Shown piece by piece: positions 10,602 through 41,020 of a stretch of DNA of 44,683 nucleotides (its first letter is position 1; each line of letters starts with the position of its first letter). Below the pieces are notes generated by a model. That model was not told where the DNA came from. It saw only the letters and a program-made list of their open reading frames with translations, and ran no database searches. A program made the translations under genes and the position numbers. Location: UHGV virus genome UHGV-0176991; one strand, written 5' to 3'. Origin of the DNA: a virus.

Positions 10602-10630
10602 TTGCACACCCCAACATAATAGGGTACTAT
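10602..10630 (+). promoter_or_regulatory. sigma70-type promoter (plus strand) TTGCAC-17-TACTAT
   Basis: ttgcacaccccaacataatagggtactattcac; near-identical 35-nt element also at 30933..30961 in reverse orientation. Confidence 0.5.
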
Positions 10631-10744
10631 TCACTTATCGGGGCGAGGCAGGGAGCCAACCTTTAATAAGGTCAGTAGCGGCGACGAGCATACGAAGAGT
10701 CGATAAGCCCGGTAAATAAATTAATGAAGAGAGAGAGAAGCCAG

Positions 10745-11038
10745 ATGAAAAAGTTAATAATAGCAGCAGCGGCAATTTTAGTTTCAGTAAACGCAACGGC
10801 AGCAGATAAAGTGATGTGCGATAACTTCGCAGATATTACTAAGGCTGTTGGTGTGCAGCGTGATGCCGGTTTAAGCCGGTCAACTATTTATATGGGGTTA
10901 CTGGAGATTACCAGCAAAGAAGTTAAAAATATTCTTAACTCTGCGGCTCTTGCCGCGACAGAAATCGCATTTGCAATGCCTGAAAAATCCCCAGAGGAAC
11001 TTTATACGTGGACCTACAACGACTGTGTGAAACACTAA
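10745..11038 (+). CDS. secreted/periplasmic small protein with signal peptide
   Basis: MKKLIIAAAAILVSVNATAADK signal-peptide-like N-terminus, two Cys; first gene of plus-strand block. Confidence 0.5.
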   Translation: MKKLIIAAAAILVSVNATAADKVMCDNFADITKAVGVQRDAGLSRSTIYMGLLEITSKEVKNILNSAALAATEIAFAMPEKSPEELYTWTYNDCVKH

Positions 11039-11465: not shown

Positions 11466-11494
11466 TTGCACACTAAGATAGAATAGGCTACTAT
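11466..11494 (+). promoter_or_regulatory. sigma70-type promoter (plus strand) TTGCAC-17-TACTAT
   Basis: ttgcacactaagatagaataggctactattca. Confidence 0.5.
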
Positions 11495-21500: not shown

Positions 21501-21524
21501 AAGCCCCCGAAAGGGGCTTTTTAG
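21501..21524 (+). terminator. intrinsic terminator
   Basis: agcccc-cgaa-aggggct + ttttt. Confidence 0.7.
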
Positions 21525-26992: not shown

Positions 26993-27405
26993 TGGGCTAC
27001 TTTGAGGACTTAACAAAAGCGTTCGATGTGCCGCTGGTAGCCTTCGGAACCGCCAACGGCATCAGGGTTGCGCTTGAAAACATCGACGCGCCGACGTCAA
27101 CCGATACACCATATCTGGCAAGTTACATGTTGCTGGCGGATACCGAGCAGGCTGATTTGTTCTTCACGGAACAACGCGCCGGTGTTTATCAGGTCGACAT
27201 TAACTACGCATCGGTGAAAGGTAGCGCGCCAATCAATAAAATGGCAGACTTACTTAACACGGCGTTTAAAGCAGGTAAGTCATTTTCTCGTAACGACATC
27301 TGCGCCGAGGTTCAATCGGTTAGCCTGGGGCCGCTGATTGTAGAAAACGGATGGGCCAAACGACCATTGTCAATTAACTTTATTGCATTCACCAAGAGGC
27401 TGTGA
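26989..27405 (+). CDS. tail terminator-like protein
   Basis: Position immediately upstream of major tail gene. Confidence 0.4.
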   Translation: MMGYFEDLTKAFDVPLVAFGTANGIRVALENIDAPTSTDTPYLASYMLLADTEQADLFFTEQRAGVYQVDINYASVKGSAPINKMADLLNTAFKAGKSFSRNDICAEVQSVSLGPLIVENGWAKRPLSINFIAFTKRL

Positions 27406-28577
27406 ATATGGCTACAACTCCTTTTAAGGGCGCGAATACCGCGCAATTCTATGTGGCAGAAGTGACCCCGGGTGTAACACCAAGTAGCCCGGTATGGTCG
27501 CCGTTGCGCAACACAGGTGGCGTTCCTGCGGTAACCCGTGATGCGCTGACCTCCAACGAACTTGACGGCAGCCGTGAAACTACGTCCATCCGCACCGGTA
27601 ACAAGCAGGTTAGCGGGGAGTACGCCATCGAACTTAGCTCCCGTAGCCAGGATGATTTCCTTGCTGGCGCTATGACTTCTACGTGGCAGGATGGCGTGAC
27701 GTTATCCGCTGTTGGTATTACAGTGGACCCGGTAGCGAAAACCTTCACCCGAGCCGCAGGAAGCTTCATTACTGACGGTGTAGAGGTTGGGGACCTTCTG
27801 TATTTTGACGCTTTAACTGGCGACAACTCTAAGCCGTTCATCGTTACCGCCGTAACAGCTACGGTTGTTACGGGCGCAGGTATCCAACACACCCTGACCG
27901 CTGAGGGCCCTATTGAGACCGACGGTAAAACCGGCGACAAGCTGGAAACCGGCAACGCATGTAAGACGTTCTCCATCCTGACGTGGTTCAAAGGCCAGTG
28001 CGGTAACCCTGACGCATACATGCTCACCAAAGGCGTGGAAATCTCTGGCTTCACCGTGGAGCAGGCGGTTAACGCTATGGTCACCGGCAGCTTCCCGTTC
28101 ATTGGCCTGAGTCAGGAGATTCTTACCGCACCACCGACAGGTTCCGACTTCTCTCAGGTCACCTTCGCCGACGAGCCGTTCTCATCTGTAGATGTGTCTG
28201 TGTTCGACGGTTCTACGCCGTTGCGTTGTGATACTCTCACTATCACCAACGATAACGGTGCTTCCGCGCAGTTCGAACTCGGCAACAGTAGCGTGGCGTT
28301 CGTGGAACGTGGCCGCGCAACTAACACCTTCTCCATCTCAGGTAAGCTGTACGACATGGCAATGATTCAGAAGTTTATCAACGAGCAGCAGGTAGAGATT
28401 AACTCTATTCTGGCGGGGGTAAATGGGGCTATGTCTTTCAGCCTAAAACGCGCAGAGCTTACGGCGGTTACACCAGAGATTGGGGGGCCTGAGTCAATCA
28501 CTCAGAGCATAGAAGGACAGTCCACAGGCAATCAATATCAATCTTCAATTGTAATACAGCGTATTAGCTACGCGTAA
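27402..28577 (+). CDS. major tail protein
   Basis: 391 aa, last structural gene before chaperone/tape-measure unit; followed by terminator. Confidence 0.55.
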   Translation: MNMATTPFKGANTAQFYVAEVTPGVTPSSPVWSPLRNTGGVPAVTRDALTSNELDGSRETTSIRTGNKQVSGEYAIELSSRSQDDFLAGAMTSTWQDGVTLSAVGITVDPVAKTFTRAAGSFITDGVEVGDLLYFDALTGDNSKPFIVTAVTATVVTGAGIQHTLTAEGPIETDGKTGDKLETGNACKTFSILTWFKGQCGNPDAYMLTKGVEISGFTVEQAVNAMVTGSFPFIGLSQEILTAPPTGSDFSQVTFADEPFSSVDVSVFDGSTPLRCDTLTITNDNGASAQFELGNSSVAFVERGRATNTFSISGKLYDMAMIQKFINEQQVEINSILAGVNGAMSFSLKRAELTAVTPEIGGPESITQSIEGQSTGNQYQSSIVIQRISYA

Positions 28578-28580
28578 GGA

Positions 28581-28603
28581 AAAGGCCCCGAAAGGGGCCT
28601 TAC
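28581..28603. terminator. GC hairpin terminator aaggcccc-gaaa-ggggcctt
   Basis: Perfect hairpin; reverse complement of the hairpin at 29111. Confidence 0.55.
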
Positions 28604-29097
28604 TATTTACCGTGGTTCTTGTGAAACCCTAAATCTCTTTCAGCAACTCTCCTCGCGGCAACTGCATCTAGTAGCGTTTTAAAGCATCCGATGTGTGTTT
28701 TTACGTTATTGTTGAATATCTGCGCATACCACAACCTTTCTTTCGCGTTCCAGTAAACCCCGGTTACTCCTGATTTATTATTACGCTGTTTTGACATATT
28801 TTTATGGTTTTCCGCATTGGACTTTTTAGCTAAGTTAAGCGGTCTATTGTTTATTCGGTTATGGTCTAGATGGTCTATTTGATCTGACGAGGTTAGCTTA
28901 TCGTTAGGATTGTTTAAGTCCCATGCTATACGGTGTGCCGCGTGCCATTTGCCTCTGAAAAATATCCTTCTATATCCGTCTCGCTGTATAGTACCTGCCT
29001 CCTCTCCAGCCTTAGCCCTCCCGGACCGTGTTACTCTGTTAAATATCCTTCCTGAAATTAAGTCGTATATGAAAAATTCATTCCAATCCATAATCAT
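28603..29097 (-). CDS. HNH homing endonuclease with AP2 DNA-binding domain
   Basis: IDHLDHNRINNRPLNL (HNH) and SGVTGVYWNAKERLWYAQIFNNNVKTHIGCFKTLLDAVAARRVAE (AP2); AT-rich relative to flanks. Confidence 0.75.
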   Translation of the reverse strand: MIMDWNEFFIYDLISGRIFNRVTRSGRAKAGEEAGTIQRDGYRRIFFRGKWHAAHRIAWDLNNPNDKLTSSDQIDHLDHNRINNRPLNLAKKSNAENHKNMSKQRNNKSGVTGVYWNAKERLWYAQIFNNNVKTHIGCFKTLLDAVAARRVAERDLGFHKNHGK

Positions 29098-29110
29098 CTC
29101 CTATTGTCAT

Positions 29111-29137
29111 AAGGCCCCTTTCGGGGCCTTTTTCTTA
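29111..29137 (+). terminator. GC hairpin aaggcccc-tttc-ggggcctt + T-run
   Basis: Identical 22-mer also at 40997. Confidence 0.5.
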
Positions 29138-29311
29138 CTCACTTTTGAATGGCATTTCATAGAAGTTAGTTAACTGGCCCCGGTTACTCCGTTCTGTCAT
29201 TTCTTTAGAGGCCTCTTCCTTACTACCGACGGCATAAATATCGACCCACTCGTCCCATTCTTCGTCGTATACTCGGATTACATATATTGTTTTCATAATA
29301 TTTTCACTCAT
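29135..29311 (-). CDS. hypothetical small protein
   Basis: Internal ATG of ORF 29135..29353. Confidence 0.35.
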   Translation of the reverse strand: MSENIMKTIYVIRVYDEEWDEWVDIYAVGSKEEASKEMTERSNRGQLTNFYEMPFKSE

Positions 29312-29534
29312 CGATATTGCTTCGGTACTCCCGTAACTTCTCCAGGCTTTCAATTGCTTCTGCTAAGTCGGTTCCCGTGTCCTTGTGGCCGCGCAAGCCC
29401 ATACACAACAGCTTCTTCAATGCGTGCTGTAGCGCCGGGTCGCGGATGTCGAAGGCACGCAGCACATCATAAACGTCTACTGTCATAGTGCTGCCGTGGG
29501 TGTTTGTCATTGTGCGGTTATATTTTGAAGTCAT
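29304..29534 (-). CDS. DUF3310-like phage protein
   Basis: TVDVYDVLRAFDIRDPALQHALKKLLCMGLRGHKD...DLAEAIESLEKL pattern recalled for that family. Confidence 0.4.
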   Translation of the reverse strand: MTSKYNRTMTNTHGSTMTVDVYDVLRAFDIRDPALQHALKKLLCMGLRGHKDTGTDLAEAIESLEKLREYRSNIDE

Positions 29535-30661
29535 CCCAGCATCTCCGGTGAAATAGTTAAACGTGCGACCTCACCGTATTCGGCGCTATAAGTAATTACA
29601 TTCGCACTGCGCCCTGACATCCACCCGCCGCGCGAGGCGTAGGCGTCTTTAGCCGCCAGGGTGCGGTGTTGCTCAACAATCATGTTACGACTTTCTACAA
29701 TCTTCTGATGGTGCAGGTGGCCTACGTGGGCGTAGCTGTAAACGCTCTCGCCGAACGCTTTACGGAACTTGGCAATCATAACCGGTTCGATAGCGTCGAA
29801 GCGCACTTTATGCCCGTGATGGAAGAACAGCGTCGTTTTGCCGTGTTGCACCATTTTGTAAACATCCGGCGACGTGTCGACGAACACCCGCGGCTCGTTG
29901 TCGTACAGCGTACTGAACATCTCAGCCAACCAAATCATTCCGCTTTCGTCGTGGTTCCCTTGCACGATAAGCAAGCGGACATTTTTATGTTTAACCAGCG
30001 CCATATCAATAACACGGCGCACCATACGAATCATGTAACGGACCAGTTTCTGATAGCGCGTGTCCGCATCAAGAACATGACCGCTTGCTGGCGTAACGGC
30101 GTCCAGACTATCGAAGTGCGCAAGGTCACCAAGCAGGTTAATAACCCCTGTTCCTGCATCCGGCGCTTTCTGAAACGCCGCATCGAACCATCGAGAGAAC
30201 AGGTCTTCTGCAATCTTCATGTCCCAGTCGTCGCCGCTCTCGTCGGCCCAGGCCAGCATACCGAGATGGAAATCAGATACCGTGTAAAGATTGAGTAGCT
30301 TATCGTCGCGTTTGGCTCGAGTCGCTTTAACAGGGGTAACTGGTGTAATCTCCGACTTCATGCCCTCGATTACGGCCTTCATTAACTCTACCTGACGTTC
30401 GGCATCGGTGTCGGTCTTAACCCATTGCAATTTAGTGTTGCCGAACTCGTCCACTAGTGACGACGTTCCTTTAATCTTGTAGCCGTCCGGTACAAGGTGA
30501 CTAACGTCACGCCCGTGGCCTACACCTTTCTTAGCCAGCTTCGCTTTACGGATACGAATAACGCGGTCGGAGATGCCATATTTACGAGCGATGTCTACAT
30601 TCTTCATCCCGGCGTTCAATTCTTCCTGTAATTGTTCGTCGGTTATTTTCTTCTGGGCCAT
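29531..30661 (-). CDS. HTH-fused calcineurin-like metallophosphoesterase (SbcD/Mre11-like motifs)
   Basis: N-terminal HTH (NVDIARKYGISDRVIRIRK); SDFHLG, GDLAHFD, GNHDE, HHGH, GHLHH metallophosphatase motifs. Confidence 0.7.
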   Translation of the reverse strand: MAQKKITDEQLQEELNAGMKNVDIARKYGISDRVIRIRKAKLAKKGVGHGRDVSHLVPDGYKIKGTSSLVDEFGNTKLQWVKTDTDAERQVELMKAVIEGMKSEITPVTPVKATRAKRDDKLLNLYTVSDFHLGMLAWADESGDDWDMKIAEDLFSRWFDAAFQKAPDAGTGVINLLGDLAHFDSLDAVTPASGHVLDADTRYQKLVRYMIRMVRRVIDMALVKHKNVRLLIVQGNHDESGMIWLAEMFSTLYDNEPRVFVDTSPDVYKMVQHGKTTLFFHHGHKVRFDAIEPVMIAKFRKAFGESVYSYAHVGHLHHQKIVESRNMIVEQHRTLAAKDAYASRGGWMSGRSANVITYSAEYGEVARLTISPEMLG

Positions 30662-30699
30662 GCTTACTTCCTCGTGTTTAGGATTTGTCCTATACTAGC

Positions 30700-30891
30700 T
30701 CACTTCTCTTTGACATTCGAGTTGCACGCCCAGATTAAAATAAAGACCCACGGCAGTAGAACCCAGCCAAGAAACAGATTAGCCATGAATATCGCTAATT
30801 TCGCTTTATGACCACGCATATGGGCCACTAAAAACGGGATAAAATAAACTAAAACGATAATGATTAAGAAGAACATAGTAATACCTGTCAT
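30700..30891 (-). CDS. small two-TM membrane protein, superinfection-immunity (Imm)-like
   Basis: VYFIPFLVAHMRGHKAKLAIFMANLFLGWVLLPWVFILIWA pattern. Confidence 0.5.
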   Translation of the reverse strand: MTGITMFFLIIIVLVYFIPFLVAHMRGHKAKLAIFMANLFLGWVLLPWVFILIWACNSNVKEK

Positions 30892-30932
30892 GGTGTAGCT
30901 CCTGTTTGAGTTAACATTGTCGGTGTAAGTGA

Positions 30933-30961
30933 ATAGTATCCTATTATGTTGGGGTCCGCAA
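30933..30961 (-). promoter_or_regulatory. sigma70-type promoter (minus strand) TTGCGG-17-TACTAT
   Basis: Reverse complement ttgcggaccccaacataataggatactattcac, near-identical to the 10602 promoter. Confidence 0.5.
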
Positions 30962-31068
30962 GTAATGTGTTAGAATTATTTTGCGCCTAGTGTCGCACAC
31001 GAAAAGCGGGTGGTTCCCGCCTGGCGCATTCACCTTAACCAGTAACCTCTTAACCAAAGGATTAAAGA

Positions 31069-31485
31069 ATGAAACTTTCCGATTTTTATTACGAAGCTGA
31101 GGCGGAAAAAGGCGCCCGTATGCCGATCCCACTGAAAGACGGCACCGATTCAGGGGAGTGGCTGAACGTTGTTTCACCTGAGGCAGACGTTGCAGTTAAA
31201 GCTATGAGGGCGTTTACACTTGCGTACCGCGCGGCATTAGGTAAATTGAAACCGCTTCGTGATAAATGCGAGGAACTGAAAGATTTCTCGGAATACAATA
31301 TTAAGATGGAAGACGCTGCGACGGACCTTAACCGCCAGTTAGCACTTGAACTGGTTAACGGTTGGAGTCTCGACGATGAATTTAATAAAGAGAACCTGAA
31401 TACTCTTTTCTCACAATATAAACGCCTCGCTGAACACGTTGTCGTTTTCCACAATGAACAGCTACGCCAATTGCAGGAAAAGTAG
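31069..31485 (+). CDS. tail assembly chaperone (gpG-like)
   Basis: Position between major tail and tape-measure genes; followed by -1 frame extension ORF. Confidence 0.55.
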   Translation: MKLSDFYYEAEAEKGARMPIPLKDGTDSGEWLNVVSPEADVAVKAMRAFTLAYRAALGKLKPLRDKCEELKDFSEYNIKMEDAATDLNRQLALELVNGWSLDDEFNKENLNTLFSQYKRLAEHVVVFHNEQLRQLQEK

Positions 31486-31490
31486 ACGCG

Positions 31491-31850
31491 TTGCTCCAGT
31501 TTGCCCGTTGGAACTTCATAACCCGCCACAAACGGCGGGAGTTTGACAGTATCGCAGATGGGCATAAAGCCGCGCTAATTGCTATGGGGGTTATGCAAGA
31601 TGCGCCGGAAGCAACGCAGGACACAGGGCCGGAATGCCCCCCTGAGCTATTAACCACCTTCGAGAAGTACAGGGAAATCAAATTCACCCGCCGAGTGGAC
31701 GATGATGGCATCAAGATGTACCCGCGCGAACAGTTAAGATGGTCGGATTTAGTGGCATACAGCGCCGTTTCAGGCCAGAATATAGGCATGTTTGAATCTG
31801 ACATCATCATGAGCTTAGACGCTATTTTCGAGGGTAGAAACGATGGCTGA
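31491..31850 (+). CDS. tail assembly chaperone frameshift extension (gpT-like; made as G-T fusion)
   Basis: Open in -1 frame from 31458 relative to G; no own ATG/SD; ends at tape-measure start. Confidence 0.45.
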   Translation: MLQFARWNFITRHKRREFDSIADGHKAALIAMGVMQDAPEATQDTGPECPPELLTTFEKYREIKFTRRVDDDGIKMYPREQLRWSDLVAYSAVSGQNIGMFESDIIMSLDAIFEGRNDG

Positions 31851-34180: not shown

Positions 34181-34207
34181 GGTAGGGGCTAACGCCCCTC
34201 TTTTATC
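34181..34207 (+). terminator. intrinsic terminator aggggc-taac-gcccct + T-run
   Basis: Hairpin nearly identical to the 6971 terminator. Confidence 0.6.
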
Positions 34208-34839
34208 AAGGCGATAACGCGGGCGAACATACCTTCCCTTATCGCCTCTATCTCGCATCTTCTTGATTCTGCTATCCTTATCTTTTCAGCGATGTAGGCG
34301 TCTAGCGCTTCTTCCTGAGTTTCAAAACGTCCTAGATTAATAGTTTTTTTCTCATATTTCACTGAGGCTTTAAATTTACCTCTTGATTCTTCATAAAAAA
34401 CACCTGTAGGTGACTCACTATTTTTCCTTTCCAGTAGAAAAACATTCAACCATTGCGGGATAAAAATGCAAGTGGTGGGGCTGTATATCTTATTAATACC
34501 AGAGAATAAGTCCTTATCTAGTTCCCATCCTTCTACGTAATTACAAAGCCACCATCTACGGAAGGACATAAACCTTTGCCACCCATGCCACACAGTTACA
34601 TCCTTGTATGCAGGTCTTTTGTTTTTATACTCGACGTCTATGCAACGTTGGATCATCCCTCGCCACGTAGCGTACGCAGGACACGGCTCACGGTTGCCGT
34701 TTATCTTAGGACTAACCACATAATCGGCATCATTTATGCCAAAATCGCATATAGTTGCACGCCTAGTTTTGCTGCTTTTGTTCGCGGGATAATTCGCGCG
34801 CAGCCACATACTCTTAGCTACTTTTTCTGTGGGTATCAT
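34189..34839 (-). CDS. homing-endonuclease-like protein with C-terminal AP2 domain
   Basis: TGVFYEESRGKFKASVKYEKKTINLGRFETQEEALDAYIAEKI (AP2); AT-rich; reverse-oriented insert between tape-measure and minor tail genes. Confidence 0.55.
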   Translation of the reverse strand: MIPTEKVAKSMWLRANYPANKSSKTRRATICDFGINDADYVVSPKINGNREPCPAYATWRGMIQRCIDVEYKNKRPAYKDVTVWHGWQRFMSFRRWWLCNYVEGWELDKDLFSGINKIYSPTTCIFIPQWLNVFLLERKNSESPTGVFYEESRGKFKASVKYEKKTINLGRFETQEEALDAYIAEKIRIAESRRCEIEAIREGMFARVIALIKEGR

Positions 34840-40996: not shown

Positions 40997-41020
40997 AAGG
41001 CCCCTTTCGGGGCCTTTTCT
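40997..41020. terminator. bidirectional GC hairpin terminator aaggcccc-tttc-ggggcctt
   Basis: Between convergent late (+) and early (-) blocks. Confidence 0.65.

Follow-up and report, generated by a model that had tools for sequence, protein, structure and literature searches.

Why would a phage keep a block of genes on the opposite strand in the middle of its tail genes? This question was raised by the viral genome UHGV-0176991. Its 44,683 nucleotides (nt), analysed at full length and called the window here, carry a minus-strand gene cassette at 28603-30961, between the tail tube gene and the tail assembly chaperone genes. A preliminary description, made from the letters alone, had placed a minus-strand unit of five open reading frames (ORFs) between the major tail gene and the chaperones, behind a sigma70-type promoter of its own, and had read it as a moron for host takeover, superinfection exclusion or anti-defence. 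The unit was found at that place, and its small ORF was better called with 58 amino acids (aa). In order of transcription the cassette encodes Imm, a metallophosphoesterase fused to a helix-turn-helix (HTH) domain, orf76, orf58 and an HNH protein:

30700..30891, minus strand: Imm, 63 aa, the first gene of the operon (PF14373, phrog_1039)
29531..30661, minus strand: HTH-metallophosphoesterase, 376 aa, with a very strong match to PHROG 704
29304..29534, minus strand: orf76 (phrog_2452)
29135..29311, minus strand: orf58, a small acidic protein of 58 aa, called as annotated in phage Ivi
28603..29097, minus strand: HNH gene, 164 aa (PF13392; phrog_99, 1.8e-49)

We consider it probable, at about 0.6, that the cassette is an autonomous, host-transcribed accessory operon in a conserved "plasticity slot", which combines an envelope immunity gene with nucleic-acid enzymes.

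The slot was compared in 73 IMG/VR loci found through the phosphoesterase, 27 found through the chaperone, and regions from GenBank. In Kagunavirus and Jerseyvirus, the phosphoesterase always lay between a divergent chaperone gene and a convergent tail tube gene, and none of the relatives examined had an empty slot. Within Kagunavirus the phosphoesterase was 93-99% identical, even where the chaperones and the tape measure protein were about 50% identical; in L005 the values were 99% for the phosphoesterase and 53-55% for the chaperones and tape measure. The more distant relatives L110 and L113-L115 also had a cassette in reverse orientation after the same promoter; its first gene encoded a small membrane protein, and the slot contained no phosphoesterase. 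The first gene was Imm in 28 of 44 distinct intergenic variants and another exported or membrane protein in the remaining 16, where it belonged to an exported family about 110 aa in length or was a different small membrane protein, so that in the relatives examined this position always encoded a small envelope-targeted protein. Across the subfamily the slot from tube to chaperone and its promoter are conserved, and the first and distal genes vary. Variable presence, which the preliminary description had proposed to look for by synteny, was found for the contents of the slot and for the phosphoesterase, which is out of the slot in some relatives, but not for the slot, promoter and phosphoesterase across Kagunavirus and Jerseyvirus.

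The arrangement itself is known. The 4.6-kb region around the cassette matched 447 phage records, the best of which were all Escherichia Kagunavirus phages, followed by Salmonella Jerseyvirus phages, and hundreds of relatives already have these genes annotated; the published genome note on phage Shashou does not discuss the cassette. Kagunavirus KMB36 was the closest relative over the region (92% identity), and the window phage is assigned to Kagunavirus (Guernseyvirinae), a kind of Escherichia coli phage already known. KMB36 is annotated with terminase, portal, head, neck and tail tube genes, then the reverse cassette, then tail assembly chaperones, tape measure, tail and tailspike genes; the tailspike is followed by replication genes on the reverse strand and by a forward early region made up of small ORFs. 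The map of the window is a circular permutation of this order, with the same strand blocks by guanine-cytosine (GC) skew.

The promoter of the cassette was found again in the early region of the same genome:

30961..30933, minus strand: cassette promoter, TTGCGG-17-TACTAT
10602..10630, plus strand: promoter sister copy 1, early region, TTGCACACCCCAACATAATAGGGTACTAT
11466..11494, plus strand: promoter sister copy 2, early region, near-identical to the cassette promoter

In 44 distinct relatives belonging to two genera, the form TTGCxx-17-TAyTAT kept a constant distance to the chaperone start, with drifting flanks, and it was retained before every alternative first gene, be it Imm, an exported protein or another membrane protein. 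Distant relatives showed variants, namely TTGCAA-16-TATCAT in L113 and L115 and a -10 of CAGTAT in L110. In the window the motif occurred three times against 0.30 expected, a count reached in none of 100 shuffles. The extended motif was exact in all three copies, and near-identity spanned most of the spacer and the start region. Both early-region copies come after a terminator, and KMB36 carries the same motif at the cassette and in its early region. A Shine-Dalgarno sequence, AGGAG, follows the cassette promoter at 30903..30899. The promoter was judged credible because its position is fixed in relatives, it is kept before any first gene and it recurs in the early region. The early-region sites share its sequence, and the cassette therefore uses the early-region promoter type of the phage. 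The sigma70-type promoter of the preliminary description was thus conserved in all relatives examined and could be placed in the early-region class. From this promoter type we infer early timing for the cassette; host RNA polymerase would transcribe it with the early genes and apart from the surrounding tail genes.

Other promoter candidates in the interval were rejected. A plus-strand TTAACA-17-TAGTAT from a promoter scan (30911-30939) has its -35 deleted in many relatives, and CATAAT/TATAAT inside the promoter spacer, considered as a -10, is not retained in Jerseyvirus. As a separate observation, the copy at 10602 drives a 104-aa protein with a signal peptide (10724-11038), which could be a further early protein that is small and exported.

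A moron is an independently transcribed accessory unit between late genes, as in lambda and HK97. The cassette resembles morons in its own promoter and terminator, its place inside a late structural operon, its non-structural genes, its envelope protein in first position and its slightly lower GC content (0.47-0.49, against 0.52-0.56 in the surrounding structural genes). Unlike morons, it has five genes and not one, it belongs to a lytic phage, and its slot, promoter and phosphoesterase are found subfamily-wide, so the cassette acts like a fixed early operon whose two ends vary. The moron label used earlier suits the exchangeable first gene, the variable distal genes, the rare HNH gene and the lower GC content, but not the idea of a strain-specific add-on.

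On the other side of the cassette promoter, the chaperone operon starts on the plus strand:

30949..30976, plus strand: TTGGGG-16-TAGAAT, candidate promoter divergent from the cassette promoter, which would serve the chaperone operon with its structured leader; read from the sequence only
30980..31044, plus strand: int-alpA structured RNA (RF02996), 5' leader of the tail assembly chaperone operon
31069-31485 and 31491-31850, plus strand: tail assembly chaperone ORFs, the right neighbour, diverging from the cassette (PF08748, PF23812)

The int-alpA match was full-length and scored 36.4 bits against a gathering score of 35.8. RNAalifold, applied to 16 diverse Guernseyvirinae sequences from an underlying set of 41 distinct intergenic sequences, independently recovered the same three helices. 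In this alignment 96.2% of cells were paired, compared with 82.5% in shuffles (none of 500 reached the observed value) and 31-54% with slid partners; 5 of 13 pairs showed compensatory changes, and the G-U pairs fit the plus strand only. In the 16 sequences a -10-like TAnnnT (here TAGAAT, 30971-30976) ended 4-8 nt upstream of the RNA motif; the -35 was not conserved. The tail assembly operon seems to begin with a structured leader, and given the conserved -10-like hexamer before that leader, the cassette and the chaperone operon thus seem to start back-to-back. The usual place of the int-alpA RNA is in integrated elements, between integrase and alpA; here, by contrast, it leads the tail assembly operon of a lytic phage. 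The sequence GCGGGAACCACCCGC followed by TTTTC (about 31003-31023, minus sense) had been considered as a terminator upstream of the cassette promoter and was rejected, as it corresponds to int-alpA hairpin 2 on the plus strand according to Rfam, RNAalifold and the G-U pairs.

At the distal end, the cassette meets the tail tube gene at a GC-rich hairpin that occurs three times in the window:

27402..28577, plus strand: tail tube gene, the left neighbour, converging on the cassette (PF18906 Phage_tube_2, E 2.6e-37; tail tube in the annotation of relatives)
28582..28601, no strand assigned: GC hairpin terminator copy 1, followed on the minus strand by the T-run TTTTCCTT; "terminator" in the annotation of Sciku and Shashou
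29111..29130, no strand assigned: GC hairpin terminator copy 2, whose loop is inverted with respect to copy 1; on the plus strand TTTTTCTT comes next
40997..41016, no strand assigned: GC hairpin terminator copy 3, in the interval separating the tailspike gene from the convergent replication genes

The 20-mer AAGGCCCCGAAAGGGGCCTT was exact at 28582 (plus), 29111 (minus) and 40997 (minus), where the preliminary description had seen bracketing GC hairpins, and none of 100 shuffles gave any match. Copy 1 is the likely end of the cassette transcript because TTTTCCTT comes next on the minus strand, and copy 2 is read as the ancestral cassette end. The hairpin at the cassette end also serves as the terminator of the tail tube gene and is thus a bidirectional terminator. 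Copy 3 sits between the tailspike stop and replication genes that converge on it, and all copies therefore mark junctions of converging transcription units. The 4-nt hairpin loop read either GAAA or TTTC at one and the same site, depending on the relative (L001-L071), and it also differed between the two cassette-flanking copies of the window, which suggests loop inversion across a palindromic stem. A variant with two mismatches, AAGCCCCCGAAAGGGGCTTT, was seen at 21501-21520 (plus); mapped onto KMB36, this site falls between the head-decoration and spanin genes, where the L037 lineage carries a reverse phosphoesterase.

The HNH gene lies between the two cassette-flanking hairpins. In phage Ivi, which has no HNH gene, a single hairpin directly followed the tail tube stop, and then came TTTTTCT and the orf58 stop; in the window and KMB36 two hairpins 529 bp apart flank the HNH gene. 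One hairpin in Ivi against two here means that the HNH gene and one hairpin copy were therefore inserted into an original bidirectional terminator, as a segment of 529 bp (28602-29130). This insertion was present at the cassette site in only five GenBank records. The protein scored 26.4 bits against PF13392 (HNH_3; cut-off 24.8), and the sole PADLOC match in the cassette was that of the HNH protein to a homing-endonuclease model. Like free-standing phage homing endonucleases, it has an HNH_3 domain and is intergenic and sporadic. Other HNH genes directly followed the phosphoesterase in other lineages, a position typical of homing endonucleases that target a conserved gene. The HNH gene presumably represents a selfish, free-standing homing endonuclease, which would have entered the terminator and duplicated the hairpin. 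As for the HNH-AP2 assignment made earlier, the HNH part passed its cut-off, while the AP2 part gave no Pfam match at E<=5 and only weakly resembled the AP2 region of another ORF at 34189-34839 (E 0.031). That ORF (minus strand, 216 aa) separates the tape measure gene from the next tail gene, has a sub-threshold AP2 match (E 1.1e-4) and a low local GC content of 0.453, and lacks a counterpart between these two genes in the KMB36 annotation; it is probably another homing-endonuclease insertion.

What the cassette does was approached through its proteins. NCBIfam gave nothing useful for any of them. Imm scored 51.6 bits against PF14373 (Imm_superinfect; cut-off 27.9) and showed two hydrophobic segments by hydropathy, which agrees with the Imm-like protein with two transmembrane segments of the preliminary description. 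It is like T4 Imm in its family, its small size and these two segments, and unlike it in having 63 aa and in belonging to a siphovirus unrelated to T4. As a member of the T4 Imm family, it would sit in the inner membrane and most likely block DNA entry by superinfecting phages.

The HTH-metallophosphoesterase, also named as such in the preliminary description, contains all five phosphoesterase motifs (DxH, GD, GNH(D/E), H and GHxH). Residues D130, H132, G178, D179, N236, H237, H282, G314 and H317 were invariant in 55 diverse homologues, and H315 was present in at least 90% of them. Its AlphaFold model reached a pLDDT (predicted local distance difference test) of 92.2 and was divided into an HTH (residues 8-44), a flexible linker, a beta-hairpin plus helix (61-102) and a core (119-376). 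The core has the nuclease-domain fold of Mre11 and SbcD, and its nearest folds were PolD-DP1, Mre11 and SbcD, with a sequence identity of only 12-17% to Mre11, SbcD and PolD DP1; the N-terminal HTH and beta-hairpin module takes the place of the Mre11 capping domain or the oligonucleotide-binding (OB) fold of DP1. The HTH gave weak matches only, of LuxR/GerE type and also of FixJ and sigma70-region-4 type. With its motifs intact, the enzyme would be catalytically competent, and the HTH of LuxR or sigma-region-4 type would tether it to nucleic acid. Most likely it would act as a metal-dependent DNA phosphodiesterase or nuclease, in host DNA breakdown or in end processing for phage replication.

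The top Foldseek matches also included the class III cyclic-nucleotide phosphodiesterase Rv0805 (E 9.4e-9), and generic phosphodiesterases scored near the nucleases in the fold comparison. These scores would fit an enzyme that hydrolyses cyclic nucleotide or oligonucleotide immune messengers, or cyclic AMP, and so blunts abortive infection. Such a function would leave the fused DNA-binding-type HTH unexplained, the neighbours of the gene are DNA and nucleotide enzymes and not signalling genes, and no PADLOC model matched the phosphoesterase; we regard signal degradation as highly improbable.

A role in DNA or nucleotide metabolism was examined further through the genes that follow the phosphoesterase. 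The AlphaFold2 model of orf76 had a pLDDT of 87.8, and Foldseek against BFVD returned a DUF3310 protein of phage P60 (template-modelling (TM) score 0.70, E 7.9e-3) together with SaV-like proteins and T7-like nucleotide kinases at TM scores of about 0.7. No Pfam match was obtained for orf76 at E<=5, and its hhalign comparison with DUF3310 was not significant (probability 0.25%). The DUF3310-like protein of the preliminary description was thus recovered by predicted fold but not by Pfam or hhalign. Compared with DUF3310, SaV-like proteins and T7 gp1.7, the fold is alike, and the 76-aa protein would be the core domain only. It was the commonest partner of the phosphoesterase (26 of 46 loci). The optional orf58 occurred in 6 of the 46 and had no Pfam or PHROG match; a 66-aa ORF, a small membrane protein, an Ant-like protein and HNH were other optional distal genes.

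In 16 of the 46 Guernseyvirinae loci a HAD phosphatase and a P-loop kinase directly followed the phosphoesterase, and never together with orf76. The phosphatase (HAD_PNKP, 71 bits) matched Pnkp1 (4xrp) and T4 Pnkp (1ltq). Webervirus TSK1 has the same pair after its phosphoesterase, and the lineage L065 has the HAD phosphatase alone. These associations raise the prospect of end healing as an anti-defence repair, in which the phosphoesterase removes 2',3'-cyclic or 3'-phosphates or blocked ends and, with the phosphatase and kinase of the sister phages, restores ligatable tRNA or DNA ends. T4 Pnkp and Rnl1 restore ends cut by PrrC in this way. The likeness to T4 Pnkp and bacterial Pnkp1 is confined to the sister phages, in which, unlike in T4 Pnkp, phosphatase and kinase are two different proteins; a ligase is likewise lacking. 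Both genes are absent from the window, no ligase is annotated in the close relative KMB36, and most lineages carry the phosphoesterase alone. Its nearest folds are the nucleases Mre11, SbcD and DP1 and not the lambda-phosphatase-like branch, which is the branch that bacterial Pnkp uses. End healing was considered unlikely on this balance. Under the preferred reading of an accessory operon with a DNA phosphodiesterase or nuclease, orf76 with its DUF3310/gp1.7 fold, or the phosphatase and kinase pair in its place, would most likely handle the products by nucleotide or end phosphorylation.

The phosphoesterase was then followed outside the slot. The first homologue search gave only proteins of 97-99% identity, and the diversity of the family came from IMG/VR loci and a representative library. 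By tblastn, 2,040 phage records carried it (Kagunavirus, Jerseyvirus, Dhillonvirus, Drexlerviridae, Vibrio and other phages), and an exhaustive profile-free search returned 4,632 clusters at 50% identity. The gene lies before the small terminase gene in Dhillonvirus, and in Drexlerviridae it comes after helicase, VRR-NUC and Dam genes and before the lysis genes. It was found in a nin-like region directly before antiterminator Q in L083, next to MazG in another context, and between a PIF1 helicase plus flap endonuclease and a MazG-like gene on a T4-like contig; neighbours in other phages were DNA and nucleotide enzymes and also a RecA-dependent nuclease. A literature search on the function of the Drexlerviridae or Jerseyvirus phosphoesterase found nothing relevant. 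Together, the Pnkp-type 3'-phosphatase, P-loop kinase, DUF3310 fold, MazG, helicases and flap endonuclease point towards a role in processing nucleic acids or nucleotides, not towards exclusion, and the substitutes of orf76 and the neighbouring genes likewise point to the processing of nucleic-acid ends or nucleotides.

Some of these occurrences show how the gene has moved. The Kagunavirus and Dhillonvirus phosphoesterases were 75-76% identical (Henu5_1, which is L078; L042-L055). About 6 kb on each side of the Dhillonvirus gene were unlike the tube, chaperone and tape measure proteins of this phage, which therefore indicates horizontal transfer of the single gene. In the related lineage of L037 (5989-7122) and L068, a phosphoesterase of 84-85% identity lay in reverse inside the head module, between Hoc-like/head morphogenesis genes and the scaffold and major head genes. 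Some Jerseyviruses had a chimeric form (L081, which is phage wksl3, 5001-6119; L101, L104, L105 and L107), in which the first approximately 80 residues (HTH and beta-hairpin) were identical to the common Jerseyvirus type and the catalytic domain had diverged, with 55% identity overall. The chimeras therefore imply that recombination took place just behind the beta-hairpin and before the catalytic domain.

These contexts bear on two further explanations. If the HTH-phosphoesterase were a transcription factor, with the phosphoesterase domain as sensor or dimerisation unit, it could control the divergent chaperone operon or the late genes. Its HTH is of LuxR, FixJ or sigma70-region-4 type, it adjoins the divergent promoter region here, and elsewhere it stands directly before antiterminator Q (L083) or before the small terminase gene (Dhillonvirus), all of which would suit a regulator. 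Catalytic residues that are invariant in homologues argue for catalysis, and no conserved operator was identified; a regulator thus appears improbable. That the cassette genes are needed for tail morphogenesis is suggested by nothing more than their position between the tail tube and chaperone genes. They lie on the opposite strand behind an early-type promoter, their content is variable with the phosphoesterase out of the slot in L110 and L113-L115, the same phosphoesterase occurs elsewhere in head, lysis, nin-like and replication contexts, and Pfam and PHROG searches found no structural domains in the cassette proteins. A structural or assembly function is scarcely credible. The non-structural, transcriptionally autonomous unit of the preliminary description was borne out by its opposite strand, its own promoter and its bidirectional terminator.

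A characterised phage metallophosphoesterase is available for comparison. Gp48 of mycobacteriophage cluster A is expressed early, has phosphodiesterase activity, degrades or damages host DNA and counters defence (PMC12287305). Gp48 and the enzyme of the window are both phage-encoded metallophosphoesterases. Homology between them was not detected, as Mycobacterium was not one of the ten most frequent organism names among the tblastn matches, and Gp48 is without an N-terminal HTH because its motif I lies at D10. Exclusion and anti-defence roles, as proposed in the preliminary description, are hypothetical for the cassette.

Several observations weigh against an early operon of an immunity protein and nucleic-acid enzymes. 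The cassette promoter matches 7 of 12 consensus positions, and a generic promoter scan missed it. Membership of PF14373 does not by itself prove an immunity function. The phosphoesterase stayed below the Pfam cut-offs (PF12850, 21.6 against 27; PF00149, 19.2 against 21.5), and searches of PDB sequences with the phosphoesterase alone or with a 17-sequence profile found no phosphoesterase; the modelled fold is taken to outweigh the sub-threshold Pfam scores. A Rad50/SbcC partner is absent from the annotation of the close relative KMB36, and the enzyme would therefore be Mre11/SbcD-like in mechanism and not a member of that family. The orf76 protein is much shorter than T7 gp1.7, and DUF3310-only proteins are not known to include a kinase. 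In the transcriptome of Kagunavirus K1B4, the one available for the genus, the Imm gene was classed apart from the adjacent tail genes, together with DNA polymerase and methylases, but it was labelled "late" in a sampling of 120 minutes that probably covered multiple cycles (PMC12645636). These data are too coarse for timing and neither prove nor refute early expression.

A broader proposal makes the HTH-phosphoesterase the core of a widespread, horizontally mobile, early phage module with interchangeable partners. Such a module would break down the nucleic acid of the host or repair that of the phage to overcome immunity, would preferentially insert antisense at terminator junctions in late operons (the tail slot here, the head slot in L037) and would constitute a new counter-defence or takeover family of about 4,600 clusters. 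We put this forward tentatively, as a rather doubtful extension of the accessory operon reading.

Current understanding is not overturned by the cassette. If the accessory operon reading is true, the cassette would show, in a form defined by sequence, how a lytic siphovirus can house an operon transcribed early by the host polymerase among its late tail genes; a bidirectional terminator shared with the tail tube gene would insulate it at one end, and back-to-back promoters at the other. It would also draw attention to an HTH-phosphoesterase family without a characterised member, carried by about 2,000 phages of therapeutic interest (Kagunavirus, Jerseyvirus, Dhillonvirus and Drexlerviridae). 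The envelope-targeted proteins at the first-gene position would be superinfection-exclusion candidates, a point of relevance to phage cocktail design.

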